Origin: Escherichia coli
GTDB taxonomy: Bacteria; Pseudomonadota; Gammaproteobacteria; Enterobacterales; Enterobacteriaceae
Direction: 5' to 3' (one strand)
DNA length: 64,000 bases
NCBI RefSeq assembly: GCF_036507355.1
Contig: NZ_AP027877.1
Below are positions 2,844 to 34,024 of the stretch, piece by piece. The notes below the pieces were generated by a model. The model saw nothing but the letters and a program-made list of their open reading frames with translations, was not told the origin of the DNA and did not search any database. Both the position numbers and the translations under genes were made by a program. Within the stretch, counting starts at the first letter, position 1. The number at the start of each line of letters is the position of its first letter.

Positions 2844-3601
2844 TTATGGCAATGGGTTATTGGCCCGACGCGCCAGCCACTCTTTAATTTGCTGGCGATG
2901 CAGGCTAACGGAACGACCTACGACAACGACGATAAGTAGCGCACCGGAAAGGGCGCTGGACACCTGATTTGGCACTCCTGCCATTTGCAAACCTTGTTGC
3001 AAATATCCCACTAATAAAACCGCAATGGCGGTGCCGATAATGGAACCGGAACCACCATAAATATTGGCACCGCCAAGCACCACGGCGGTGATGGCGGGCA
3101 TCAGAAACGACGCACCGAGATCGGAACGTGCTGAACCAAAATACGACACCAGCAGCACAGCGGCGACCGCAGACGCCAGCCCCGTCATGGCATAGAGCGC
3201 ACATAAGGTACGGTTAACTGGAATCGCGCTATAAAGCGCCACGCGCGGGCTTTGCCCAATCAAAAACACGTTACGTCCGGCATGGGTTTTATGCAGCCAG
3301 AGCCAGAAAACGAGGAGACATATCAGGAAGATAATCAGCGGAACGGGGAGCCCCAACACATCCAGGTTAGCGAAATCTGTAAACGCCATCGGGAATCCAC
3401 CAATACCTTCGTACCCCGTCGCTCCGACCATCCCGGAAAGCAGCAGGGCGCTTCCGGCAAACAGATACAGCGTGCCAAGCGTAATCACCAGCGGGTTAAC
3501 TTTGGTATAGATAATTAATCCGGCGTTGATCAGCCCGCACAATGCGCCGAGCAGTAAGGTCAGGAGAATCGCCAGCGGCATCGGCACACCACTTTGAAAC
3601 A
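2844..3601 (-). pseudogene. lsrD: lsrD 3' fragment (C-terminal ~250 codons of the AI-2 ABC permease), cut off from its 5' end by the transposon
   Basis: ORF 2844..3587 is a polytopic permease C-terminus. Together with 9242..9481 it sums to 993 nt (330 codons plus stop) once the 5-bp duplication is counted once. Confidence 0.85.
3597..3601. repeat. 5-bp target-site duplication AAACA (left copy)
   Basis: Identical AAACA immediately outside both terminal inverted repeats (3597-3601 and 9242-9246). Confidence 0.8.
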
Positions 3602-3639
3602 GGGGGAACCGCAGAATTCGGAAAAAATCGTACGCTAAG
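3602..3639. repeat. left 38-bp terminal inverted repeat of the transposon
   Basis: GGGGGAACCGCAGAATTCGGAAAAAATCGTACGCTAAG; 35/38 match to the reverse complement of 9204-9241. Confidence 0.85.
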
Positions 3640-3790
3640 CTAACGGTGTTCTCGTGACAGCTCTTTGACTAGGCTTTCTAAGGCCATTCTGATAGCCCTG
3701 ACTTCCTGAAAAGCCATGGCTAAAATTTGTGCGGCTAAAAGGGATAACCGATGGTAAAGTAAGTTATCCCTGTCGAGATACTGAAAAGCG

Positions 3791-5368
3791 TTATCCTCGT
3801 TTTTCCCAAAACTGTTTTGCCAGTTCGCTCAGAGCGCTAGTTAACTGAGCGACAGATTTCGCACTTTGCAAATTATTCTGCCCGGTCTGTACATTGGTAT
3901 CAGCAGCATCGCGTATATTGATAATACTGCGGTTTATGTCTTCACTTACTGCTCCCTGCTGCTCGACCGCAGTCGCTATTTGCGCGTTCATGTCGGTAAT
4001 TTCGTTAACGCGTTGGCCAATTCCATCAAGAGCTGTAGCTGCTTCCTCTGCGTGAGCTACACTCGTGTGCGCTTGCCGACTACTTTGCTCCATGACTGTA
4101 ACAGCGGATTGCGCTCGCTCTTGTAGAGCGCTGATCATGCTTTGAATATCCGTTGTCGATTGCTGTGTGCGAGCAGCAAGACTGCGAACCTCATCGGCGA
4201 CAACAGCAAAACCACGCCCCTGCTCACCAGCACGCGCGGCCTCAATTGCTGCGTTGAGTGCCAACAAATTCGTTTGCTCGGCGATCCCTCGTATAACGTC
4301 AAGAACTTTTGATATCTCGTTACTTTGACCTTCAAGCTCATGAATAACCTGAGTGGCTTGCCTAATTTCACCTTCAAGGGCAGTGATTGACTGGCTTGTG
4401 TGGGCTACCAGACGCTGGCCAGATGCCGTCTCAGTGTCTGCTCTTCCGGCCGCATCTGCAGCATGCTGTGCATTGCTCGCAACCTCTTGAATGCTTGCCA
4501 CCATTTGGTTTACTGCCGTTGCTATTTGATCTGTCTCTGCCTGCTGCTCAACTGTAAGTACATTGCTTGACTCAATATCCTTTAGTAGGCCTCGGGTGTG
4601 TTCGCTAAGCCGATTTGATGCATCACCTATGCGACCTACTATGGCGCCTGTTTCAGCTTGCATCATTCGTAAAGCAAACTCTATTTGGCCAAACTCATCG
4701 GTGCGCCCAGTGTAGAGGGATTGACTTAATGGGTTATTGGAAATATTCTTGGCTCTTTCAACCAGTCTTCCAAGAGGAGAGAGAATAGCCAAAACACTAA
4801 CAGAGCTTAAGCTTCCTGACATTAAAGTGGCTAACAATAAGCTGCTTATTGATGTATCAGTAAGCATGCCGGCAGCCATTGCGCTTGATATAATACTACC
4901 CCATATGAGCAAGAGTATTTTCACGGAAAAGCTAGCAGCCAATTTCGGCCTCGCGGCCTTCCCGCTTCTCAATTGAGCATATAATTTTTCCGCAGCCAAA
5001 ACCTGCTCAGGTTCAGGCTTGGTCCTTACAGACTGGTATTCAACAATCGAACCATTCTTAGCTATTGGCGTTACATAAGCACTTACCCAATAGTGGTCGC
5101 CATTTTTACAGCGATTTTTTACTAGCCCCATCCATGAGCGGCCAGATTTTAATGTACTCCACATATGCTCAAATGCAGCAGGCGGCATATCTGGGTGTCT
5201 TACGATGTTGTGAGGCTGGCCTAATAGTTCTTCCTCAGTGAAACCACTGATTTTAATGAAGTCAGGATTAACGTACGTGATATGGCTTTGAGGGGAGGTA
5301 GTCGAAAGAATATTGGCATCTTTTGGGAGTTCTAAGTTTCGACCCGTCACTGGTAAATTCTGGCGCAT
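3791..5368 (-). CDS. methyl-accepting chemotaxis protein with N-terminal PAS domain (525 aa), transposon cargo
   Basis: PAS-like N-terminus ([10 protein letters not shown]...[12 protein letters not shown]), hydrophobic segment, conserved MCP signalling core ([38 protein letters not shown]). Confidence 0.8.
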
Positions 5369-5677
5369 AAGAACCTCAAGGGTTGGCTGTTTTATTTTAT
5401 TGTTTTCGGCATTAAGCCCAATTTCTTGAGCGTTACGATAAAGCTAGCATGGAAACGATAGGTGCAAGCAAGTTAAGGGTTGCATCGCGCATGTCAATCT
5501 AGGCTATACCCTAACTTGATGTCAGGCAGGGCCGCGCCGCTTCGTCAGAATAGAGTCTGCTTTCCCATTTTTTGACACATGCCCGCGAAGGTTATAGATT
5601 TCAGCCTGACAGAAATGGGCTTTGAGGCACAACGGAACAGAAAGTGCACTTAAGCCGCCTTCAACCAAGGAGACATC
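5369..5677. promoter_or_regulatory. putative res (resolution) site and divergent promoter region between chemoreceptor gene and tnpR
   Basis: Intergenic position typical of res in Tn21/Tn1721-type elements; inverted repeats TGTCAGGC / GCCTGACA near 5520 and 5605. Subsites not mapped. Confidence 0.4.
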
Positions 5678-6238
5678 GTGCAGGGGCACCGCATCGGCTA
5701 CGTCCGGGTCAGCAGCTTTGACCAGAACCCGGAACGCCAGCTGGAACAAACCCAGGTGAGCAAGGTGTTCACCGACAAGGCATCGGGCAAGGACACCCAG
5801 CGCCCCCAGCTCGAAGCGCTGCTGAGCTTCGTCCGCGAAGGCGATACAGTGGTGGTGCACAGCATGGATCGGCTGGCCCGCAACCTCGATGACCTGCGTC
5901 GCTTGGTACAGAAGCTGACTCAGCGCGGCGTGCGCATCGAGTTCCTGAAGGAGGGCCTGGTGTTCACTGGCGAGGACTCGCCGATGGCCAACCTGATGCT
6001 GTCGGTGATGGGGGCCTTCGCTGAGTTCGAGCGCGCCCTGATCCGCGAGCGGCAGCGTGAGGGCATCGCCTTGGCCAAGCAGCGTGGCGCGTACCGGGGC
6101 CGCAAGAAAGCCCTGTCCGATGAGCAGGCTGCTACCCTGCGGCAGCGAGCGACGGCCGGCGAGCCCAAGGCGCAGCTTGCCCGCGAGTTCAACATCAGCC
6201 GGGAAACCCTCTACCAGTACCTCCGCACGGACGACTGA
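5678..6238 (+). CDS. tnpR: serine recombinase, Tn3-family resolvase TnpR (186 aa)
   Basis: Resolvase N-terminal catalytic motif (GYVRVSSFDQNPERQ), C-terminal HTH; close to Tn21/Tn1721 TnpR. Confidence 0.9.
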   Translation: MQGHRIGYVRVSSFDQNPERQLEQTQVSKVFTDKASGKDTQRPQLEALLSFVREGDTVVVHSMDRLARNLDDLRRLVQKLTQRGVRIEFLKEGLVFTGEDSPMANLMLSVMGAFAEFERALIRERQREGIALAKQRGAYRGRKKALSDEQAATLRQRATAGEPKAQLAREFNISRETLYQYLRTDD

Positions 6239-6241
6239 CAC

Positions 6242-9208
6242 ATGCCGCGTCGCTTGATCCTCTCGGCCACGGAGCGGGACACCCTGCTTGCGCTGCCGGA
6301 AAGCCAGGATGACCTGATCCGCTACTACACCTTCAACGACTCCGACCTGTCGCTGATCCGCCAGCGACGCGGCGACGCCAACCGCCTCGGCTTCGCCGTG
6401 CAGCTCTGCCTGCTGCGCTACCCCGGTTACGCGCTGGGAACCGACAGCGAGCTGCCCGAGCCGGTCATCCTGTGGGTGGCGAAGCAAGTCCAGGCCGAGC
6501 CGGCGAGCTGGGCAAAGTACGGCGAGCGCGACGTGACCCGTCGCGAGCATGCCCAGGAACTGCGCACCTACCTGCAACTGGCCCCGTTCGGCCTGTCCGA
6601 CTTCCGCGCCCTGGTGCGCGAGCTAACCGAGCTGGCCCAGCAGACCGACAAAGGCTTGCTGCTGGCCGGTCAGGCCCTGGAGAGCCTACGGCAGAAACGA
6701 CGCATCCTGCCGGCGCTGAGCGTGATTGACCGGGCCTGCTCGGAAGCCATTGCGCGAGCCAATCGGCGGGTCTACCGCGCCCTGGTCGAACCACTCACGG
6801 ACTCGCATCGGGCCAAGCTGGACGAGCTGTTGAAGCTCAAGGCCGGCAGCAGCATCACCTGGTTGACCTGGCTGCGCCAGGCACCGCTGAAACCCAACTC
6901 TCGGCACATGCTGGAACACATCGAGCGGCTGAAGACATTTCAGTTGGTGGACTTGCCCGAAGGCCTGGGCCGGCACATCCACCAGAACCGCCTGCTCAAG
7001 CTGGCCCGCGAGGGTGGGCAGATGACGCCCAAAGACCTCGGTAAGTTCGAGCCGCAGCGCCGCTACGCGACCCTGGCCGCCGTGGTGCTGGAGAGCACCG
7101 CGACCGTGATCGATGAGCTGGTCGATCTGCATGACCGCATCCTGGTCAAGCTGTTCAGCGGCGCGAAGCACAAGCATCAGCAGCAGTTCCAGAAGCAGGG
7201 CAAGGCGATCAACGACAAGGTGCGCCTGTACTCCAGGATCGGCCAGGCGCTGCTGGAAGCGAAGGAAAGCGGCAGCGACCCCTATGCCGCCATCGAGGCG
7301 GTGATTCCCTGGGACGAGTTCACCGAGAGCGTCAGCGAGGCCGAGCTGCTGGCCCGGCCGGAAGGCTTCGACCACCTGCACCTGGTCGGCGAGAACTTCG
7401 CCACCCTGCGCCGTTACACGCCGGCCTTGCTGGAGGTGCTGGAACTGCGCGCCGCGCCGGCCGCGCAAGGCGTGCTGGCAGCCGTGCAGACCCTGCGTGA
7501 GATGAACGCCGACAACCTGCGCAAGGTGCCGGCCGATGCACCCACGGCCTTCATCAAGCCGCGCTGGAAGCCGCTGGTGATCACCCCGGAAGGCCTCGAC
7601 CGGAAATTCTACGAAATCTGCGCCCTGTCCGAGCTGAAGAACGCCCTGCGCTCCGGCGACATCTGGGTCAAGGGCTCGCGGCAGTTCCGCGACTTCGACG
7701 ACTACCTGCTGCCGGCCGAGAAGTTCGCCGCACTCAAGCGCGAGCAGGCCCTGCCCCTGGCGATCAACCCGAACAGCGACCAGTACCTGGAAGAGCGTTT
7801 GCAGCTGCTGGACGAGCAGTTGGCCACCGTCACCCGCCTGGCCAAGGACAACGAGCTGCCCGATGCCATCCTCACCGAGTCAGGGCTGAAAATCACCCCG
7901 CTGGATGCGGCGGTGCCGGATCGGGCGCAGGCGCTGATCGACCAAACCAGCCAGTTACTGCCGCGCATCAAGATCACCGAACTGCTGATGGACGTGGACG
8001 ACTGGACGGGCTTCAGCCGCCACTTCACCCACTTGAAGGACGGGGCCGAGGCCAAAGACAGGACGTTGCTGCTGTCCGCAATCCTCGGTGATGCGATCAA
8101 CCTCGGGCTGACCAAGATGGCCGAGTCGAGCCCCGGCCTGACCTACGCCAAGCTGTCCTGGCTGCAAGCCTGGCACATCCGCGACGAAACCTATTCGGCG
8201 GCCTTGGCCGAGCTGGTCAACCACCAGTATCGCCACGCCTTTGCCGCCCACTGGGGCGACGGCACGACCTCATCCTCCGATGGCCAGCGCTTCCGCGCGG
8301 GTGGCCGGGGCGAGAGCACCGGGCACGTCAACCCGAAGTACGGTAGCGAGCCGGGACGGCTGTTCTATACCCATATCTCCGACCAGTACGCGCCGTTCAG
8401 CACCCGCGTGGTGAATGTCGGCGTCCGCGATTCCACCTATGTGCTCGACGGCCTGCTGTACCACGAGTCCGACCTGCGGATCGAGGAGCACTACACCGAC
8501 ACGGCCGGCTTCACCGATCACGTCTTTGCCCTGATGCACCTGCTAGGCTTCCGCTTCGCGCCGCGCATCCGCGACCTCGGCGAAACCAAGCTGTACGTGC
8601 CGCAGGGCGTGCAAGCCTACCCGACGTTGCGCCCGCTGATCGGCGGCACCCTGAACATCAAGCACGTGCGTGCCCACTGGGACGACATCCTGCGCCTGGC
8701 CAGCTCGATCAAGCAGGGCACCGTCACCGCCTCGCTGATGCTGCGCAAGCTCGGCAGCTACCCGCGCCAGAACGGACTGGCCGTGGCCCTGCGCGAGCTG
8801 GGCCGGATCGAGCGCACGCTGTTCATCCTGGACTGGCTGCAAAGTGTTGAACTGCGCCGCCGCGTGCATGCCGGCCTGAACAAAGGTGAGGCGCGCAACT
8901 CGCTGGCCAGGGCGGTGTTCTTCAACCGCCTTGGGGAAATCAGGGATCGGAGCTTCGAGCAGCAGCGCTACCGGGCCAGCGGCCTCAACCTGGTGACGGC
9001 GGCTATCGTGCTGTGGAACACGGTGTACCTGGAACGCGCCACCCAGGGGTTGGTCGAGGCCGGCAAGCCGGTGGACGGCGAGCTGCTGCAATTCCTGTCG
9101 CCGCTGGGCTGGGAGCACATCAACCTAACCGGCGATTACGTCTGGCGGCAGAGCCGCAGACTGGAAGACGGGAAGTTTCGGCCCTTACGGATGCCCGGAA
9201 AACCTTAG
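6242..9208 (+). CDS. tnpA: Tn3-family transposase TnpA (988 aa)
   Basis: 988-aa ORF, typical Tn3/Tn21 transposase length; 3' end runs into the right inverted repeat, as is usual in this family. Confidence 0.9.
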
Positions 9209-9241
9209 CGTACGATTTTTTCCGAATTCTGCGGGCTCCCC
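9204..9241. repeat. right 38-bp terminal inverted repeat of the transposon
   Basis: CTTAGCGTACGATTTTTTCCGAATTCTGCGGGCTCCCC; reverse complement matches the Tn1721-type IR. Confidence 0.85.
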
Positions 9242-9246
9242 AAACA
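9242..9246. repeat. 5-bp target-site duplication AAACA (right copy)
   Basis: Same pentamer as 3597-3601, directly abutting the right IR. Confidence 0.8.
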
Positions 9247-9481
9247 GTACGCCCAATGCAATGGCGCAGAGGCCGATGGTCGAACCAAACGAAATATCGA
9301 TCCCGCCACTGACAATCACCATCGTCAGCGGTAGGGCGACAATGCCAATGCAGATAAAGTCACTGGTGCTGAACAGCAACATATTGAGATCTAACATCCG
9401 CGGGTTAATTGCACCAAATGCGACAATCTCAATAACGAGCAGTGCGGCAAGAGCCAGTTCCCAACCGTAGCGAATACGCAT
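9242..9481 (-). pseudogene. lsrD: lsrD 5' fragment (N-terminal ~80 codons)
   Basis: Reverse-strand ORF begins [30 protein letters not shown]..., then reads into the transposon IR. Confidence 0.85.
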
Positions 9482-13318: not shown

Positions 13319-14848
13319 ATGGCTCGACTCTTTACCCCTTCAGAATCAAAGTATTACCTGATGGCGCTGGATGCAGGCACCGGAAGTATTCGGGCTGTGA
13401 TATTCGACCTGGAAGGCAATCAAATAGCAGTGGGACAGGCGGAGTGGCGGCATCTGGCAGTACCGGACGTTCCTGGTTCTATGGAATTTGATCTCAACAA
13501 AAACTGGCAACTGGCGTGTGAGTGTATGCGCCAGGCGCTGCACAACGCCGGCATAGCCCCGGAGTATATCGCTGCCGTTTCGGCATGTTCGATGCGTGAA
13601 GGCATTGTTTTATATAACAATGAAGGAACACCGATCTGGGCCTGCGCCAATGTGGATGCCAGAGCGGCGCGCGAAGTTAGCGAACTTAAAGAACTGCACA
13701 ACAATACCTTTGAAAACGAAGTTTATCGCGCGACCGGACAAACGCTGGCTTTAAGTGCCATCCCCAGATTACTTTGGCTGGCCTATATGCTCAGCGGCGA
13801 ACTTGCGGTGGATCCCTCTAACGCTGGCACCACGGGACTTCTTGATCTAACCATCCGTGACTGGAAACCTGCATTGCTGGATATGGCTGGCCTGCGTGCC
13901 GATATTCTTTCTCCTGTCAAAGAAACCGGCACATTGCTGGGCGTGGTAAGTTCACAAGCGGCGGAACTCTGCGGTCTGAAGGCGGGCACTCCGGTGGTCG
14001 TTGGAGGAGGCGACGTGCAGCTTGGTTGCCTGGGGTTAGGCGTTGTGCGTCCGGCACAAACCGCGGTTCTTGGCGGCACATTCTGGCAGCAAGTTGTAAA
14101 TTTAGCCGCGCCGGTGACAGACCCAGAAATGAACGTGCGCGTTAATCCTCATGTTATTCCTGGCATGGTACAAGCTGAATCTATAAGCTTTTTTACCGGA
14201 CTCACCATGCGCTGGTTCCGCGATGCTTTCTGTGCCGAAGAAAAACTGATTGCCGAACGTTTAGGCATCGACACCTATACGCTGCTGGAAGAGATGGCCA
14301 GTCGGGTGCCGCCTGGGTCGTGGGGCGTAATGCCGATCTTCTCCGACAGAATGCGCTTTAAAACCTGGTATCACGCTGCGCCTTCCTTTATTAACTTGTC
14401 CATTGACCCGGATAAATGTAACAAAGCGACATTGTTCCGTGCGCTGGAAGAAAATGCGGCGATTGTATCAGCGTGTAACTTGCAGCAAATTGCTGATTTC
14501 TCGAATATTCATCCTTCATCGTTAGTCTTTGCAGGCGGAGGTTCAAAAGGGAAATTATGGAGTCAAATTCTCGCTGATGTCTCGGGATTACCCGTCAATA
14601 TTCCGGTAGTCAAAGAAGCCACCGCATTAGGATGTGCCATTGCAGCTGGCGTCGGTGCCGGAATTTTTTCATCAATGGCAGAAAACGGAGAACGCCTGGT
14701 TCGCTGGGAACGGACGCACACACCAGACCCAGAAAAGCATGAACTTTATCAGGATTCACGCGATAAGTGGCAGGCAGTTTATCAGGATCAGCTGGGGCTG
14801 GTTGATCATGGACTGACGACGTCGTTATGGAAAGCGCCTGGGTTATAG
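13319..14848 (+). CDS. lsrK: autoinducer-2 kinase LsrK (FGGY carbohydrate kinase), 509 aa here
   Basis: FGGY-kinase N-terminus ([13 protein letters not shown]), lsrRK context; in-frame stop immediately upstream of the ATG at 13319. Shorter than the ~530 aa I recall for K-12. Confidence 0.85.
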
Positions 14849-15060
14849 TTTCATTGACAGCCACATCATGATGACCGTGGCTGTTAGTTTTTGAGTATAG
14901 TTATTCTTATTTCCCTTCTTTTAGAGCTGGCTTGTTAAATGCCAGCTTGCAGATTCATCGTTCCATCACCAGTACTATATTCAAGGGAAAATTGCTATTT
15001 TTCTTGGTGATGCTGCCAACTTACTGATTTAGTGTATGATGGTGTTTTTGAGGTGCTCCA

Positions 15061-15336
15061 GTGGCTTCTGTTTCTATCAGCTGTCCCTCCTGTTCAGCTA
15101 CTGACGGGGTGGTGCGTAACGGCAAAAGCACCGCCGGACATCAGCGCTATCTCTGCTCTCACTGCCGTAAAACATGGCAACTGCAGTTCACTTACACCGC
15201 TTCTCAACCCGGTACGCACCAGAAAATCATTGATATGGCCATGAATGGCGTTGGATGCCGGGCAACAGCCCGCATTATGGGCGTTGGCCTCAACACGATT
15301 TTACGTCACTTAAAAAACTCAGGCCGCAGTCGGTAA
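15061..15336 (+). CDS. insA: IS1 InsA (91 aa)
   Basis: [43 protein letters not shown]... zinc-finger/HTH InsA. Confidence 0.95.
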
Positions 15337-15758
15337 CCTCGCGCATACAGCCGGGCAGTGACGTCATCGTCTGCGCGGAAATGGACGAACAGTGGGGCTA
15401 TGTCGGGGCTAAATCGCGCCAGCGCTGGCTGTTTTACGCGTATGACAGGCTCCGGAAGACGGTTGTTGCGCACGTATTCGGTGAACGCACGATGGCGACG
15501 CTGGGGCGTCTTATGAGCCTGCTGTCACCCTTTGACGTGGTGATATGGATGACGGATGGCTGGCCGCTGTATGAATCCCGCCTGAAGGGAAAGCTGCACG
15601 TAATCAGCAAGCGATATACGCAGCGAATTGAGCGGCATAACCTGAATCTGAGGCAGCACCTGGCACGGCTGGGACGGAAGTCGCTGTCGTTCTCAAAATC
15701 GGTGGAGCTGCATGACAAAGTCATCGGGCATTATCTGAACATAAAACACTATCAATAA
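15255..15758 (+). CDS. insB: IS1 InsB reading frame (167 aa; the transposase InsAB' is made by -1 frameshift at the A-run near 15310)
   Basis: Canonical InsB sequence; TTAAAAAAC slippery run in the insA/insB overlap. Confidence 0.9.
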
Positions 15759-15773
15759 GTTGGAGTCATTACC

Positions 15774-17755
15774 GGAATTTCCTCGGAACGGGCGAAGCTT
15801 TCCGCTATATCTATATCGGTGATGCTGGCGATGGTGAACTTAATGTCTCGAGTGAAGGCAAAGTAGATTCGGGAATTATCACTGCGGGGATGAAAGAAAC
15901 AGGCACAGGCAACATTACTGTTAAGGATAAGAACTCCGTTATCACTAATCTCGGAACTAATCTTGGTTATGACGGCCACGGCAAAATGAATATCAGTAAT
16001 GAGGGGCTTGTTGTCAGCAACGGAGGAAGCTCTCTCGGTTATGGAGAAACCGGCGTCGGGAAGGTTAGCATCACCACGGGGGGGATATGGGAGGTCAATA
16101 AGAATGTCTATACCACCATTGGTGTTGCGGGCGTCGGAAACCTCAATATTAGCGATGGCGGTAAGTTCGTATCGCAAAATATTACTTTTTTGGGCGATAA
16201 AGCAAGCGGTATCGGCACTCTGAACCTGATGGATGCGACATCATCGTTCGATACTGTGGGTATCAATGTCGGTAATTTTGGTAGCGGTATCGTAAATGTC
16301 AGTAATGGTGCCACCCTTAATTCAACGGGCTATGGATTTATCGGAGGAAATACCTCCGGTAAGGGGATAGTTAATATTTCAACGGATAGTCTCTGGAATT
16401 TAAAGACATCATCTACTAACGCCCAATTGCTACAGGTCGGTGTATTAGGCACGGGTGAACTGAATATTACCACCGGAGGTATAGTTAAAGCGCGTGATAC
16501 ACAGATAGCTCTCAATGACAAAAGTAAGGGCGACGTGAGGGTGGATGGGCAGAACTCTCTTCTTGAAACATTCAATATGTACGTAGGGACATCTGGTACG
16601 GGTACGTTAACCCTGACGAATAGCGGCACGCTGAATGTCGAAGGTGGAGAAGTTTACTTAGGTGTTTTTGAACCTGCTGTAGGAACGCTAAACATTGGTG
16701 CAGCTCACGGTGAGGCGGCGGCAGATGCCGGGTATATAACCAACGCGACGAAAGTAGAGTTTGGTTCTGGCGAAGGTGTTTTTGTCTTTAATCATACTAA
16801 TAACAGTGATGCCGGCTACCAGGTCGATATGCTGATTACAGGTGACGATAAAGACGGAAAAGTGATCCATGATGCAGGCCATACGGTGTTCAATGCAGGG
16901 AATACTTATAGCGGTAAAACGCTGGTCAATGACGGCATCCTGACCATTGCGTCTCATACGGCAGATGGGGTAACGGGCATGGGTTCGAGTGAAGTAACCA
17001 TTGCAAGCCCCGGTACGCTCGACATTCTCGCATCAACGAACAGTGCAGGAGATTACACGCTGACCAATGCGCTCAAAGGCGATGGCTTGATGCGAGTGCA
17101 GCTGTCATCCTCCGACAAGATGTTTGGCTTTACCCATGCAACAGGGACTGAATTCGCCGGTGTTGCCCAAGTGAAAGACAGTACCTTCACTCTGGAACGC
17201 GACAACACCGCTGCGCTTACTCACGCGATGTTGCAGTCTGACAGTGAAAATACCACATCGGTAAAAGTTGGAGAGCAATCCATTGGTGGACTGGCCATGA
17301 ATGGAGGTACCCTCATTTTCGATATCCAGGTCTTTCAGTGGTTGATTGGCGCAACGGATGGCCATGCAAAAAACTTCTCCGTATTTATTCAGGCTGGCGG
17401 CAGTTATCGACTCACGCCATTTTACGACATCATTTCAGCATTTCCGGTATTGGGTGGCGCGGGAATACACATCAGCGATCTCAAACTGGCAATGGGGCTT
17501 AACGCATCCAAAGGCAAAAAAACGGCAATCGATAAAATTTATCCGCGACATTTTTTGGCGACAGCAAAGGTGCTGAGATTCCCGGAAGTGCAGATGCATG
17601 AAATCCTGAGTGACTTTGCCAGAATGATTCCGGCAGCACTGGATAACGTGAAGACTTCATTACCGACAGATTTTCCAGAGAACGTGGTGACGGCAGTTGA
17701 AACCAATGTGTTGAGGTTGCACGGTCGGTTAAGCCGAGAATACGGTATTAAGTAA
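15774..17755 (+). pseudogene. chimeric remnant: AIDA-like autotransporter passenger fragment (ydeK/yneO-like, 5' end removed by IS1, no beta-barrel domain) fused in frame to the 3' end of hipA
   Basis: N-terminal ~480 codons are Gly/Thr/Asn/Ser-rich beta-helix repeats; the last ~142 codons are the HipA C-terminus. Confidence 0.7.
17327..17755 (+). pseudogene. hipA: hipA 3' fragment (C-terminal ~142 codons of the HipA kinase toxin, including the catalytic loop); hipB and the hipA 5' part are absent
   Basis: QVFQWLIGATDGHAKNFSVFIQAGGSYRLTPFYDIISAFPVLGG...RLHGRLSREYGIK matches the HipA C-terminus; the N-terminal domain and ATP-binding region are not upstream. Confidence 0.75.
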
Positions 17756-18008
17756 GAGTAAGATATGGGGTTTGGTCGTTGTTAATGAGCAGGACAATCA
17801 TGACCGCCAACGACTAGATTCTTCCTTGGTTTATGTTGGTGCGCATAATGTATATTATGTTAAATCACCTACTGTGGTAAATAAGTTCATATGACACTCC
17901 CACTAACTGATAAATCAATACGTTAGGATTTCTGATCTCCCTCTCGTTTCTTGCATTAGGTACAGAGTACATTCTCTTCATATCCATGATAATTTTGAGG
18001 TAAATATT

Positions 18009-18720
18009 GTGTATTCACTAAAGCAGTTGGTTATCTCAGGCCGTAAAAGGCGATGGATCCTGATGGACTTGGAAACCTCTCTGCCGTTGCTGTATCCCCT
18101 TAGGTACCATATTGACCATTTGGCTTTCCGCTCATTGTCCACACAGTCAGCTTCACTTCAATCTGTGAAGTTTTTTTACGAATTCTGGAGGCAAAAGTAT
18201 GGTGTCTCGTTTTGCTACAGCTTCTATTCATCTGACCACAATCCAGACATTGCTGTCGGTGAAATGCCCGCATTTTGGATGTATCTAGAAAATGGCCACA
18301 ACGTCCAGTCAAATGTGTTGTCTTTAACGAGAGTCACAAAAGCCAATAGCTTAACTCATACAGTTAGAGTTCGTGCTGTGATCCATTTCATTTCTTTTTT
18401 GATTAACACCTACATATCACCTGCATACCGGGATGACTCTCCCAAAGCATTATCACTTTTGGCTTCGCGTTTACACACCCGTTTACAGCTTTGCCGGGAG
18501 AATTATCGAACGCTTACATCAAACAAATTTTCGCAACATAGTCACAGCAGCCAAGGATTTCAGAGTTTGTCTGGGGCAATGGTGCTCAGCCTGTATGGAA
18601 TAATAACCCCCTCTTCTGCCCAAAAGCATAACCCGCTAAATCCTTTCCCTTCCGGGCATCTTCAGTTCCGCAATTTTTTGATTATTCGTCTGTTGTTAAA
18701 TTATGGTTTACGAACAGGTG
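18009..18720 (+). pseudogene. tyrosine recombinase / phage-integrase-family gene, N-terminal fragment truncated by IS1
   Basis: AT-rich ORF with an integrase-like N-terminal motif (LQSVKFFYEFW) and the start of a box-I-like motif (LLLNYGLRTGG) just before the IS1 boundary. Weak assignment, no search run. Confidence 0.35.
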
Positions 18721-18775
18721 GGTGATGCTGCCAACTTACTGATTTAGTGTATGATGGTGTTTTTGAGGTGCTCCA

Positions 18776-19051
18776 GTGGCTTCTGTTTCTATCAGCTGTC
18801 CCTCCTGTTCAGCTACTGACGGGGTGGTGCGTAACGGCAAAAGCACCGCCGGACATCAGCGCTATCTCTGCTCTCACTGCCGTAAAACATGGCAACTGCA
18901 GTTCACTTACACCGCTTCTCAACCCGGTACGCACCAGAAAATCATTGATATGGTCATGAATGGCGTTGGATGCCGGGCAACAGCCCGCATTATGGGCGTT
19001 GGCCTCAACACGATTTTACGTCACTTAAAAAACTCAGGCCGCAGTCGGTAA
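18776..19051 (+). CDS. insA: IS1 InsA (91 aa)
   Basis: Identical to copy-1 InsA except one residue (MVMNG vs MAMNG). Confidence 0.95.
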
Positions 19052-19473
19052 CCTCGCGCATACAGCCGGGCAGTGACGTCATCGTCTGCGCGGAAATGGA
19101 CGAACAGTGGGGCTATGTCGGGGCTAAATCGCGCCAGCGCTGGCTGTTTTACGCGTATGACAGGCTCCGGAAGACGGTTGTTGCGCACGTATTCGGTGAA
19201 CGCACGATGGCGACGCTGGGGCATCTTATGAGCCTGCTGTCACCCTTTGACGTGGTGATATGGATGACGGATGGCTGGCCGCTGTATGAATCCCGCCTGA
19301 AGGGAAAGCTGCACGTAATCAGCAAGCGATATACGCAGCGAATTGAGCGGCATAACCTGAATCTGAGGCAGCACCTGGCACGGCTGGGACGGAAGTCGCT
19401 GTCGTTCTCAAAATCGGTGGAGCTGCATGACAAAGTCATCGGGCATTATCTGAACATAAAACACTATCAATAA
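18970..19473 (+). CDS. insB: IS1 InsB reading frame (167 aa)
   Basis: Identical to copy-1 InsB except one residue (LGHLMS vs LGRLMS). Confidence 0.9.
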
Positions 19474-19488
19474 GTTGGAGTCATTACC

Positions 19489-20134
19489 TGCTTGCCATAG
19501 CACCGTTGCCAACGCAGCTGTCGCACTGGGTGCGACTCGGGTAATTTATCCGGAAAACCAGAAACAGGTTTTATTGCCTGTCACGAATAATGATCCTGCC
19601 AGTGTCTATCTCATTCAGTCATGGATAGAAAATGCAGGTGACCAAAAAGACACCCAGTTTGTCATTACCCCACCGCTTTTTTCCATGCAAGGTAAAAAAG
19701 AGAATACGCTGCGGATAATCAACGCCACTAATCATCAGTTACCAGGCGACCGTGAAAGCCTGTTCTGGGTGAATGTTAAAGCTATTCCTGCTATGGAAAA
19801 AGACCAGAAGAATGAGAATACATTACAGCTGGCAATTATTAGCCGCATAAAAATGTTTTATCGCCCCACGAACCTGGCAATGGCACCTGAAGAAGCGCAT
19901 GCAATGCTTCGGTTTCGTCGCAGCGGTAGCAAACTCACTCTTATTAATCCAACGCCCTACTTCATTACCGTAACAAATATGAAAGCAGGAAATAGCAATC
20001 TCCCAAACACCATGGTGCCGCCAAAAGGTGAAGTGTCGGTGGATATCCCGCATGCTGCCACCGGGGATATCAGTTTTCAGACGATCAATGATTACGGCGC
20101 ATTAACTCCGCGTATTAAGGCAACCATGCAGTAA
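19489..20134 (+). pseudogene. periplasmic fimbrial chaperone (PapD/FimC family), 5' end and signal-peptide region removed by IS1
   Basis: Reading frame opens directly at the IS1 end with a mature chaperone N-terminus (..RVIYPENQKQ..) and immunoglobulin-like chaperone domains; no own start codon or promoter. Confidence 0.75.
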
Positions 20135-20175
20135 GCCAGTGACCTAATTAATAATAAACTCAATCGGAATTAATA

Positions 20176-32338: not shown

Positions 32339-34024
32339 ATGATAACCATTCCCATTACGTTTTGTATGTTGATAGCAAAGTATCTCTGTCTGCTGAAGCC
32401 CTTTTGGCTGCGTAAGAATAATAAAACTTCAGTGTTGTTAATCATTATTATCCTCGCCATGATCCTTGGCGTGGTTAAAATTCAGGTCTGGTTAAACGAC
32501 TGGAATAATGATTTTTTCAATGCGCTAAGCCAGAAAGAAACCGATAAGCTTTGGCAGCTTGTCCTTTGGTTCCCTGCCCTGCTGGGGATCTTTGTATTAA
32601 TATCCGTAAACAAAACATGGTTAATTAAACTGCTGACTATTCGCTGGCGCGAATGGTTAACAGATTACTACCTTAATCGCTGGTTTGCAGATAAAAACTA
32701 CTACTTCACGCAGATCTACGGCGAGCATAAAAATACAGATAACCCTGACCAACGTATCGCTGAAGACATTCTCTTACTGATCAGCAAAACGCTCAGTCTT
32801 TCATTTGGCTTCATCCAGTCACTTAGCATGCTGATCACCTTTACCGTTATTCTTTGGCAAAGCGCGGGTACGCTCTCATTCACTGTTGGTGGAACAGAAT
32901 GGAATATCCAGGGGTATATGGTCTATACCGTCGTGCTCATTGTGATCGGTGGAACTTTATTTACCCATAAGGTGGGTAAACGTATTCGTCCGCTTAATGT
33001 GGAAAAACAACGTAGCGAAGCGACATTTCGAACTAATCTTGTGCAGCATAATAAACAGGCAGAACTGATTGCGCTAAGCAATGCTGAGTCTCTACAACGC
33101 CAGGAGTTGAGCGACAATTTTCACACCATTAAAGAGAACTGGCATCGTTTAATGAATCGTCAGCGGTGGCTTGATTACTGGCAGAATATTTATTCGCGTT
33201 CGCTTAGCGTTCTTCCGTACTTTCTGTTATTGCCGCAGTTTATTAGCGGACAGATCAATCTGGGCGGACTTATGAAATCGCGCCAGGCATTTATGCTGGT
33301 ATCGAACAATTTAAGCTGGTTTATTTATAAATATGATGAAATTGCTGAACTGGCTGCGGTTATCGATCGCTTGTATGAGTTCCATCAACTCACCGAACAG
33401 CGCCCTACGAATAAGCCTAAAAATTGCCAACATGCGGTACAAGTGGCTGACGCGAGTATTCGTACCCCTGATAATAAGATCATATTAGAGAACCTGAACT
33501 TTCATGTTCCGCCAGGCAAATGGCTATTACTGAAAGGTTACTCTGGTGCGGGAAAAACCACACTGCTTAAAACATTATCCCACTGCTGGCCGTGGTTTAA
33601 AGGTGATATTTCTTCTCCTGCCGACAGTTGGTATGTGTCACAAACACCGTTAATCAAAACCGGCTTACTGAAAGAGATTATTTGTAAAGCACTTCCTCTG
33701 CCCGTAGACGATAAATCGTTGAGCGAAATACTGCATCAGGTTGGTCTGGGGAAATTGGCTGCGCGTATTCATGACCACGATCGCTGGGGAGATATTCTTT
33801 CCAGCGGCGAAAAACAACGTATCGCCCTGGCACGATTAATTTTACGACGTCCGAAATGGATATTTCTTGACGAAACTACCTCTCATCTTGAGGAACAAGA
33901 GGCTATCCGCTTACTGCGTTTAGTGCGTGAAAAACTACCCACAAGCGGCGTCATTATGGTTACACATCAACCCGGTGTCTGGAACCTGGCCGATGATATT
34001 TGTGACATTAGCGCGGTTTTATAA
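32339..34024 (+). CDS. yddA: fused ABC transporter permease/ATP-binding protein YddA (561 aa)
   Basis: N-terminal TM domain, C-terminal ABC ATPase (Walker A GYSGAGKTT, signature LSSGEKQR). Confidence 0.9.
   Translation: MITIPITFCMLIAKYLCLLKPFWLRKNNKTSVLLIIIILAMILGVVKIQVWLNDWNNDFFNALSQKETDKLWQLVLWFPALLGIFVLISVNKTWLIKLLTIRWREWLTDYYLNRWFADKNYYFTQIYGEHKNTDNPDQRIAEDILLLISKTLSLSFGFIQSLSMLITFTVILWQSAGTLSFTVGGTEWNIQGYMVYTVVLIVIGGTLFTHKVGKRIRPLNVEKQRSEATFRTNLVQHNKQAELIALSNAESLQRQELSDNFHTIKENWHRLMNRQRWLDYWQNIYSRSLSVLPYFLLLPQFISGQINLGGLMKSRQAFMLVSNNLSWFIYKYDEIAELAAVIDRLYEFHQLTEQRPTNKPKNCQHAVQVADASIRTPDNKIILENLNFHVPPGKWLLLKGYSGAGKTTLLKTLSHCWPWFKGDISSPADSWYVSQTPLIKTGLLKEIICKALPLPVDDKSLSEILHQVGLGKLAARIHDHDRWGDILSSGEKQRIALARLILRRPKWIFLDETTSHLEEQEAIRLLRLVREKLPTSGVIMVTHQPGVWNLADDICDISAVL

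Follow-up and report, generated by a model that had tools for sequence, protein, structure and literature searches.

An IS1-truncated recombinase gene beside dif in Escherichia coli, a probable remnant of a GInt-type island

A truncated recombinase gene between dif and IS1

In the 64-kb stretch of Escherichia coli DNA analysed here (the window), an open reading frame of 238 codons with a GTG start lies on the plus strand at 18009-18725, between dif and a copy of IS1 and upstream of the remains of a fimbrial operon. The gene-derived part of this frame (18009-18720, plus strand) comprises the 5' 712 nt, or 237 codons, of a recombinase gene that we call ginA-like, and covers the helical core-binding domain plus the catalytic domain from its start through box I (GLR-TG). 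The initial annotation, made from the letters of the sequence, had listed this frame with the same coordinates and had pointed to an AT-rich segment at 17756-18720. Both descriptions are correct: the GC content of the segment is 41.6%, compared with 49.3% for the whole window, and it is 37.9% in the 195 nt that precede the ATG at 18063.

The frame is not a chance one, because window positions 17700-18722 are 98.7% identical over their full length to a locus of E. coli WP5-S17-ESBL-11 (NZ_AP022107.1; L004), in which the same frame runs on into an intact 446-aa protein annotated as "site-specific integrase". By itself the 238-aa fragment matches no Pfam or NCBIfam model, even at E ≤ 10, since the Pfam domain starts only near residue 200 and IS1 interrupts the gene at 219. 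Its identification as a tyrosine recombinase consequently rests on the intact orthologue. The tyrosine-recombinase motifs noticed earlier in the N-terminal part thus led to the right gene, as the orthologue demonstrates, although no HMM recovers them from the fragment. The initial annotation had named a match to an AraC-type regulator as an outcome that would refute its reading. We rejected this identity: neither the fragment nor the intact orthologue matches any HTH family, and there is no homology to yneL. The suggested comparison with the K-12 yneL region proved to be misdirected, as yneL is unrelated, has no match in the window and maps to L004 31026-31228, which is outside the island, on its right side, and inside the interval that is deleted in the window.

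The intact orthologue matches Pfam PF00589 (Phage_integrase) over residues 200-361 with 30.5 bits (cutoff 27.1; E = 3.7e-7). Across 24 homologues, with identities down to 22%, seven positions (R217, E220, K259, R346, H347, W396 and Y406) do not vary and conservation of H343 reaches at least 90%; the orthologue family thus keeps the R-K-H-R-W-Y set of tyrosine recombinases. A two-domain Cre/Xer-like fold, with a helical core-binding domain and a catalytic domain, is predicted for the intact protein by an AlphaFold2 model with a mean pLDDT of 82.6. The best Foldseek match to this model is Cre (1crx_A, E = 2.4e-6, about 410 alignment columns), and further matches are XerA, XerH and the Int protein of Tn1549. 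When the intact protein was searched against the PDB with phmmer there was no match; a family profile was needed, and it identified XerA (8.7e-5).

Translation probably starts from the GTG at 18009, in which case the intact protein would have 464 aa rather than the 446 aa of the annotation. We favour this upstream codon because the 18-residue N-terminal extension that it adds (MYSLKQLVISGRKRRWILMD) is conserved among the aligned homologues, because many database members have 464 aa, and because a Shine-Dalgarno-like GAGG (17997-18000) is located 8 nt 5' of the GTG. Scans of 17700-18760 for promoters, terminators and repeats revealed nothing above chance.

At the other end, the last gene-derived codons in the window read ...LNYGLRTG, where the intact orthologue has ...LNYGLRTGELLLLE. 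The cut lies three codons past the box I arginine (R217 in RefSeq numbering) and IS1 follows directly from 18721, so the proposal that IS1 severs the gene at catalytic box I is accurate. Of the catalytic set only R217 is kept; the K, the H-x-x-R, the W and the catalytic Tyr are absent from the window fragment.

The intact island and its four-gene module

In WP5-S17-ESBL-11, the intact gene is the first of four same-strand genes, overlapping or abutting, that occupy the left end of an island. They encode proteins of 446, 521, 788 and 144 aa and are labelled here ginA-, ginB-, ginC- and ginD-like. Compared with the empty sites in O55:H7 and K-12, the island occupies L004 1469-30802 (29.3 kb). 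The GC content of L004 is 44% in the module, 48% in the island as a whole and 37% in its last 300 nt. The cargo of about 22 kb includes genes for an AlbA-domain protein, a 1375-aa ATPase, hydrolases, oxidoreductases and regulators, together with IS and Tn3 debris. To the right of the island are a yneL-like HTH fragment and then a complete F9 (yde) fimbrial operon. A second island (L058), whose module is about 85% identical to that of L004, has the same structure.

The window segment had been suspected of being the remains of an integrated element, and this is what the relatives indicate, since there the gene heads a 29.3-kb island with imperfect repeats for which K-12 and O55:H7 have the empty site. 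It had also been suggested that hipBA and the fimbrial cluster sit in or beside a former island; they sit beside it and not inside it. Two features went unseen at that stage, namely that the attachment site is dif and that the gene is part of a four-gene multi-recombinase module and not a lone phage-type integrase.

The 521-aa second protein matches PF00589 at E = 1.1e-10 and has conserved candidate catalytic residues (R224, K258, R341, H364 and Y373). The match of the 788-aa third protein to PF00589 is weak and extends across the H-x-x-R...Y region; its family has an invariant R250 in a TGFRSxE box I-like context, as well as H506, R509 and Y541, again as candidate catalytic residues. The Arg, Arg and Tyr positions are thus kept in all three recombinase-like proteins. 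The 144-aa fourth protein had no family match, and curated NCBIfam models are lacking for it as well as for the first and third proteins.

The A-B-C-D gene order is kept in every complete locus among 39 loci from species-representative genomes, with protein identities down to about 30%. These loci derive from Pectobacterium, Escherichia whittamii, Enterobacter, Klebsiella, Citrobacter, Providencia, Acinetobacter, Psychrobacter, Moraxella, Aeromonas, Vibrio and Photobacterium, and the same order is present in P. aeruginosa. The contig scan with strict peptide patterns returned no Pseudomonas, and the Pseudomonas relatives came from the HMMER search. With HMMER, the third-protein profile matched 1,142 clusters (50% identity) at E ≤ 1e-3 among 1.84 billion representatives.

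The genes that accompany ginA bear on two other accounts of the fragment. It could be what is left of the integrase of a prophage that once integrated downstream of hipA, as the name of the matched Pfam family (Phage_integrase) and the AT-rich region might suggest. No intact relative contains phage genes, however, the cargo being metabolic, defence-like and IS material, and the gene is always followed by two more recombinase-like genes and a small gene; we therefore consider a prophage origin highly improbable. The location upstream of a fimbrial operon, and the membership in the tyrosine recombinase family, are also what would be expected of a FimB/FimE-like switch recombinase that formerly controlled the adjacent F9 (yde) operon. 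FimB and FimE are proteins of about 200 aa. The protein considered here, at 446-464 aa, is more than twice as long as the 200 positions of PRK09870, the NCBIfam model for tyrosine-type DNA invertases, and in intact genomes 29 kb of island separate its gene from the fimbrial genes. Moreover, the module is found beside dif in genera without an F9 operon, as well as on plasmids, and island-free genomes still have a complete fimbrial operon region beside dif. A fimbrial switch is accordingly an explanation to which we assign almost no weight.

dif as the left border

Window positions 17838-17865 (plus strand) match GGTGCGCATAATGTATATTATGTTAAAT, the experimentally confirmed dif of E. coli (PMC3025954), at 28 of 28 positions. 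The XerC arm is at 17838-17848, the centre (TGTATA) at 17849-17854 and the XerD arm at 17855-17865. K-12 has GGTGCGCATAATGTATATTATGTTAAAT between hipA and yneL. In the window dif is intact and constitutes the outer part of the attL of the former island; exactly after it the DNA diverges from the empty site, with a non-coding, AT-rich left end of the island at 17866-18008 (plus strand). We recognised the border as dif because the first 24-27 nt of the left-end query are near-invariant in almost all loci from other genera, while the DNA further left is unrelated. The same near-invariance across genera ruled out a reading in which the DNA left of the junction is ordinary sequence downstream of hipA and 24 nt of it form an att core. 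Most differences between the dif-type sites of the loci affect the central 6 bp and the XerC arm, which has CGC in Enterobacterales and often CGT in Moraxellaceae.

The left end itself is also conserved. In the window the motif TAAGTTCAT is found 17 nt past dif, at 17882-17890, and all 29 dif-adjacent left ends compared, which come from many genera, have T.A.TTCAT at +16 to +18. An inverted ATGAAC(T) is located 18-19 nt inside the right ends (three right ends examined). Further inward, CG[CT]ATAA-N6-TTATGTTAAA[TC] occurs upstream of ginA in 23 of the 26 loci that have a complete first gene and enough upstream sequence, and 18 of those 23 have a dif-type site 185-216 nt before ginA. The distance from dif to the ATG in the window is 197 nt. 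This arrangement (dif, 17 nt, TTCAT, and a recombinase gene about 140-200 nt further) provides a rule for finding and delimiting islands of this type. GC skew at the 4-kb scale was uninformative.

Of 5,426 complete E. coli genomes, 5,266 have the hipA 3' end with dif and 3,504 have the contiguous, K-12-type empty arrangement. Approximately 1,900 genomes are without the K-12-type arrangement (about 1,600 match it partly and 324 not at all), which identifies a hot spot on the XerD side of dif.

Position of the crossover

The empty site in K-12 is dif+CATGTCTGAG. For the first island (L004), attL is dif+CACCTACTG... and attR is ...ATTTGCGCACAACATAAGTTAAAT+CATGTCTGAG (in a shorter form, ...TTTGCGCACAACATAAGTTAAAT+CATGTCTGAG); for the second (L058), attL is dif+TTAGTCC... 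and attR is ...GTTTGCACTCAACATAAGTTAAAT+CATGTCTGAG. The only segment common to attL and attR in both islands is GTTAAAT (17859-17865), the outer 7 bp of the XerD arm. The similarity just before this segment is imperfect, and the ends form imperfect direct repeats, TATTATGTTAAAT in attL and ACATAAGTTAAAT in attR, that are identical at 11 of 13 positions. A search for att-like repeats had been recommended at the outset; it was productive in the relatives, but the 64-kb window contains no second att copy, no attR-like sequence and no other piece of the island.

XerC and XerD cleave at the TGTATA centre of dif. In the islands, all 28 bp of dif are retained in attL, and attR has a degenerate partial copy in which the host sequence resumes only from GTTAAAT. 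These two features place the strand exchange outside the 6-bp centre, within the outer XerD arm. In addition, attR includes an XerC-arm-like sequence, TTTGCGCACAA (8/11), that is 1 nt from the XerD-arm remnant. As the two arms are separated by 1 nt instead of 6, attR is not a usable Xer site.

These junctions are also where a classical IMEX can be weighed. In that case, host XerC/XerD would have integrated the island at dif, and the recombinase-like genes would be cargo or would serve some other purpose. The location at dif fits such an element, and the XerC-arm-like TTTGCGCACAA of attR recalls an IMEX attP, which has a good XerC arm and a poor XerD arm. We regard this as unlikely, given that the exchange maps outside the Xer-cleaved centre with a full dif left in attL, that attR with its closely spaced arms could not serve as an Xer site, that module and dif-adjacent left end stay strictly co-conserved even at protein identities as low as 30-40%, and that the Arg, Arg and Tyr positions are kept in all three proteins.

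The reading that we prefer, with a probability of roughly 80%, is that the window holds the inactivated first-gene fragment of a GInt-type island beside dif, that the recombinases of this island would have exchanged strands in GTTAAAT, and that the remainder was lost in a deletion associated with IS1. The intact element encodes three tyrosine-recombinase-type proteins and one small protein and sits immediately beside dif, on the side of the XerD arm. Both integration and excision would proceed by strand exchange within GTTAAAT, and an excised circle is predicted to have the junction ...CAACATAAGTTAAAT-CACCTACTG... We infer catalysis by the island's own enzymes solely from the position of the shared segment and the conserved catalytic residues. 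For such elements dif, or a plasmid Xer site, would offer a conserved, single-copy landing pad that insertion leaves undestroyed.

Relationship to known elements

GInts carry their ginABCD operon at the 5' end, followed by 2.5-70 kb of cargo and a short AT-rich 3' end; they are bordered by imperfect direct repeats of 10-17 nt, insert site-specifically and need all four genes (Bardaji et al., 2017, PMC5385486). Phyre2 models of GinABC had Cre, XerD or XerC as templates (PMC5385486). At their left end the islands described here likewise have four genes in an operon, for two clear recombinases, a larger and divergent third one and a small protein of about 130-145 aa. Cargo, an AT-rich right end, imperfect direct repeats and site-specific insertion are shared as well, and Cre is the best fold match here too. 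On the other hand, the published GInt insertions are in an ABC-transporter gene, at ssb or at an RNR gene, whereas the target here is dif or a plasmid Xer site, and neither GInt paper mentions dif or Xer sites. The third proteins also differ: here an invariant Arg is kept, together with the H-x-x-R and the Tyr, while the published GinC was described as being without the first Arg or a catalytic motif.

The supplement of the GInt paper lists no E. coli GInt, and ginC-ginD blocks were reported in 7.5% of Escherichia replicons (Idola et al., 2023, PMC10214605). The ginC-ginD list of that study, as far as the part consulted extends, includes ECs_3509-3512 of strain Sakai, and the accessions of the subfamily described here are absent from the same part (PMC10214605). 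The Sakai block is collinear with our module. ECs_3512, ECs_3511 and ECs_3510 are at once the positional counterparts and, within this block, the best BLASTP matches of the first three proteins (1e-14, 7e-8 and 2e-8, respectively), and the small protein had no match. By anatomy the islands can be classed as GInt-type; the tie to the Pseudomonas GinA-D proteins is indirect, running through the Sakai block.

Integration at dif or a dif-like site is well known from IMEX (CTXphi, VGJphi, TLCphi, the gonococcal genetic island and EludIMEX/EcloIMEX), which likewise have one functional and one degenerate flanking site and accumulate in tandem at the site. IMEX, however, use host XerCD and exchange strands at the dif centre, whereas the family described here has three recombinase genes of its own; the dif-adjacent left end is always accompanied by three recombinase-like genes with conserved catalytic residues. 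Because of these recombinases and the off-centre crossover, the family is not IMEX as defined. A link to the EcloIMEX site, which lies between setB and yeiP, was considered and rejected, as neither setB nor yeiP is found beside any locus.

[quoted passage not shown] Their gene order is intA, tfp (the product of which is without RHRY), intB and srap, whereas the second protein of our module has an integrase domain. Since this protein is a bona fide recombinase (PF00589, conserved residues), the family is not SE. SE and GInt proteins also form separate clusters and are split by sequence and gene order (PMC10214605). Tn554 (tnpA, tnpB, tnpC), compared here by its description, resembles the module in having two tyrosine recombinases and a small protein and in its highly site-specific insertion; it differs in having three genes rather than four, Firmicutes hosts and no large cargo. 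Three adjacent tyrosine-recombinase genes are a feature shared with RIT (recombinase in trio) elements, which are described as transposable; their RitA protein contains two CB domains, and their RitC protein ends in an additional C-terminal helix. RIT elements are bounded by long inverted repeats and are not known to have a fourth small gene or cargo, whereas the islands here encode a third protein of 788 aa, possess a fourth gene and carry 22 kb of cargo.

Occurrence in other genera and on plasmids

The module adjoins a dif-type site in Enterobacterales, Moraxellaceae, Aeromonas and Pseudomonas; outside E. coli, the sites are dif-type by sequence. In a distant Pseudomonas branch the module encodes proteins of 417, 506, 702 and 131 aa, the third of which (702-704 aa in this branch) matches the family profile at E = 7e-55. 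The dif-type site of this branch, CGCATAAT..ATATTATGTTAAAC, is followed by ATGTTCAT at +17 and, after about another 130 nt, by the first gene. To the left of the site the branch has four different contexts: one is a filamentous prophage with Zot, and another is an oppositely oriented second three-recombinase module across the site.

Related modules are encoded on plasmids. Those on E. coli IncHI-type plasmids are 98.6-99.8% identical in DNA. On p65COLEC-1 (217 kb, mcr-1), an Xer-like junction, GGTACATATAA-CGAGGA-TTATGTTAAAT, is followed directly by the left end of the island, and a P. aeruginosa megaplasmid has a similar Xer-like junction. By tblastn, the third protein is encoded on 113 plasmids, 84 of them conjugative. 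GinC and GinD proteins on Klebsiella and Salmonella plasmids are 100% identical, and the third protein in Raoultella is 99.9% identical; the Salmonella plasmid is an IncHI1A plasmid with blaCMY-2. A Salmonella plasmid includes a junction of a right end to a left end that is compatible with tandem insertion or with a trapped circle junction.

These distributions lead us to suggest, tentatively and at somewhat less than even odds, that a GInt-like multi-recombinase clade, apparently undescribed as such, homes to Xer sites (dif in Enterobacterales, Moraxellaceae, Aeromonas and Pseudomonas, and sites of the dimer-resolution type on plasmids). Such a clade would rely on recombinases of its own, with the crossover in the outer XerD arm, would leave dif intact, and would make the XerD side a hot spot of accretion and decay. 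In searches of open-access literature we found no paper that links GInt-like modules with dif. The wider context of the fragment is that of widespread three-recombinase islands that seem to land at the XerD-arm edge of dif and at Xer-type sites on resistance plasmids. If confirmed, this would be a second way, independent of Xer catalysis, of exploiting the single-copy site that is most conserved in bacterial chromosomes, and it raises the question of whether island recombinases interfere with XerCD/FtsK at dif. IncHI-type plasmids, if this is true, would be vehicles for dif-homing islands.

IS1 and the decay of the island

The IS1 copy that ends the gene is 768 bp long (18721-19488, plus strand), and both of its inverted repeats were located; the left one (GGTGATGCTGCC... 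/ GGTGATGCTGCCAACTTACTGAT) begins at 18721. There is no target-site duplication, as the flanking 9-mers, GAACAGGTG and TGCTTGCCA, differ. Window positions 17325-18720 align to L004 933-2322, and the window from 19489 onward aligns to L004 from 32651 onward, so that a single IS1 stands in place of about 30.3 kb. Deleted are ginA from codon 220 onward, ginBCD, all of the cargo, attR and the yneL-like fragment, and also the F9 major-subunit gene, the promoter region and about 21 codons at the start of the chaperone gene. On the right the deletion ends within this F9/yde fimbrial chaperone gene, whose 3' part (19489-20134, plus strand) is kept, with PapD_N and PapD_C domains; the intact coding sequence in L004 is at 32586-33296. 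The lack of a target-site duplication fits two origins, an adjacent deletion mediated by IS1 or a recombination event that joined two IS1 copies.

An identical 238-aa product with an identical IS1 junction is found in five other public assemblies, all of them drafts, and because these share the junction we conclude that the lesion is inherited within a lineage. The exact junction is not contiguous in any of the 5,426 complete E. coli genomes. Taken alone, the fragment is an ordinary IS1-truncated recombinase pseudogene, a relic of a known kind of island, and itself documents only the decay of the terminus in one E. coli lineage. The window keeps dif and the left end, along with a gene whose product is catalytically dead and consists mainly of the core-binding domain. 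With attR and all catalytic residues but one gone, the remnant is inert and can neither excise nor integrate.

Most likely, the remnant has no present function. A truncated core-binding product of 220-238 aa might still be made, and could bind the left end and block re-insertion of related islands, or perturb XerD at dif. Nothing is missing from the promoter-proximal region, the GAGG or the start codon, family members strongly conserve the N-terminal domain, and the same allele persists in several sequenced isolates. That persistence is equally explained by recent common descent, given the identical junction, and the related genomes exhibit many different decay states of the gene, so we judge a function of this kind to be quite improbable.

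Among the complete genomes that carry the 5' part of the gene, 72 of 98 have a near-complete module. Independent IS1 insertions in the same gene occur in other strains, one of them 6 nt away and in the opposite orientation, and another near codon 370. In this region as a whole, two IS1-associated deletions and one deletion without an IS at its junction have inactivated the island, hipBA, an autotransporter and the F9 fimbriae.

The dif Site and Apparent Accretion of Islands

The remnant of the GInt-type island directly adjoins a 28-bp dif site, an exact match at 17838–17865 located 82 nt 3′ of the hipA stop codon, and the window thus spans the replication terminus. On the Salmonella IncHI1A plasmid pS153-CMY-227k (locus L060, ~19471), the right end of one island passes through GTTAAAT, the outer 7 bp of the dif XerD arm, directly into the left end of another. 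Some E. coli have extra elements between dif and the island (L003, 3494–7650; L013). The right-end/left-end junction and the extra elements at dif point to tandem accretion at this site.

In a P. aeruginosa contig from SRR7002832 (L061, 3730–5229), two multi-recombinase modules extend in opposite directions from a single dif-type site (5075–5098). The module on the XerC-arm side encodes proteins of 400, 514, and 758 aa, and that on the XerD-arm side encodes proteins of 417, 506, 702, and 131 aa. The other flank of dif may be targeted by a different family. In two Acinetobacter loci (L029, position 137; L037, position 602), the dif-type site at the island border is accompanied, ~2.3 kb to its left, by another dif-like site in inverted orientation, CG[CT]ATAATG...ATTGATGTTAAAT. 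These paired sites may represent a pdif-type module.

Conserved Features of the Second and Third Recombinase-Like Proteins

The third protein of the intact island (788 aa; 4541–6907 in L004, the locus of an E. coli relative) has a conserved C-terminal part of ~200 aa that includes a coiled-coil-like tail and is missing from shorter relatives (543–705 aa). In the alignment of its homologues, four cysteines within this part (C662, C671, C677, and C683) are nearly invariant, and a four-cysteine cluster is also conserved in the second protein of the module.

Rearrangements in the Neighboring Genes

On the hipA side of dif, an ORF (15890–17755) consists of an internal segment of an ECSE_1600-type autotransporter gene fused in frame with the final ~143 hipA codons. 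The junction (17324/17325) marks a 4.2-kb deletion that removed the 3′ part of the autotransporter gene, hipB, and the 5′ part of hipA; no IS is present there. The same fusion occurs in public assemblies, where it encodes a 1731-aa product and lacks the upstream IS1. In the window, that IS1 (15006–15773) replaces 1.38 kb; the autotransporter promoter and ~1 kb from the 5′ end of its gene are part of the sequence lost. This IS1 has the same orientation as the other copy in the window (18721–19488), from which it differs by 2 nt, and neither copy is flanked by a target-site duplication.

The F9/yde fimbrial operon (19489–24861) is without its major-subunit gene, promoter region, and chaperone signal peptide; the usher gene (20176–22827) and the downstream subunit genes appear intact.

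In the lsr region, lsrD is interrupted by a high-GC (58%) insertion (~3588–9480), leaving a truncated permease ORF (2844–3587). The insertion encodes a 988-aa Tn3-family transposase (6242–9208; DDE_Tnp_Tn3 match at 3e-155) and, on the minus strand, a protein with PAS, HAMP, and MCP-signal domains (3791–5368), and looks like a Tn1721/Tn5403-like transposon. The lsrK gene (13319–14848) encodes 509 aa, compared with 530 aa annotated in a reference relative (1593 nt), probably due to a short in-frame deletion; the 509-aa variant is recorded in ten contigs.
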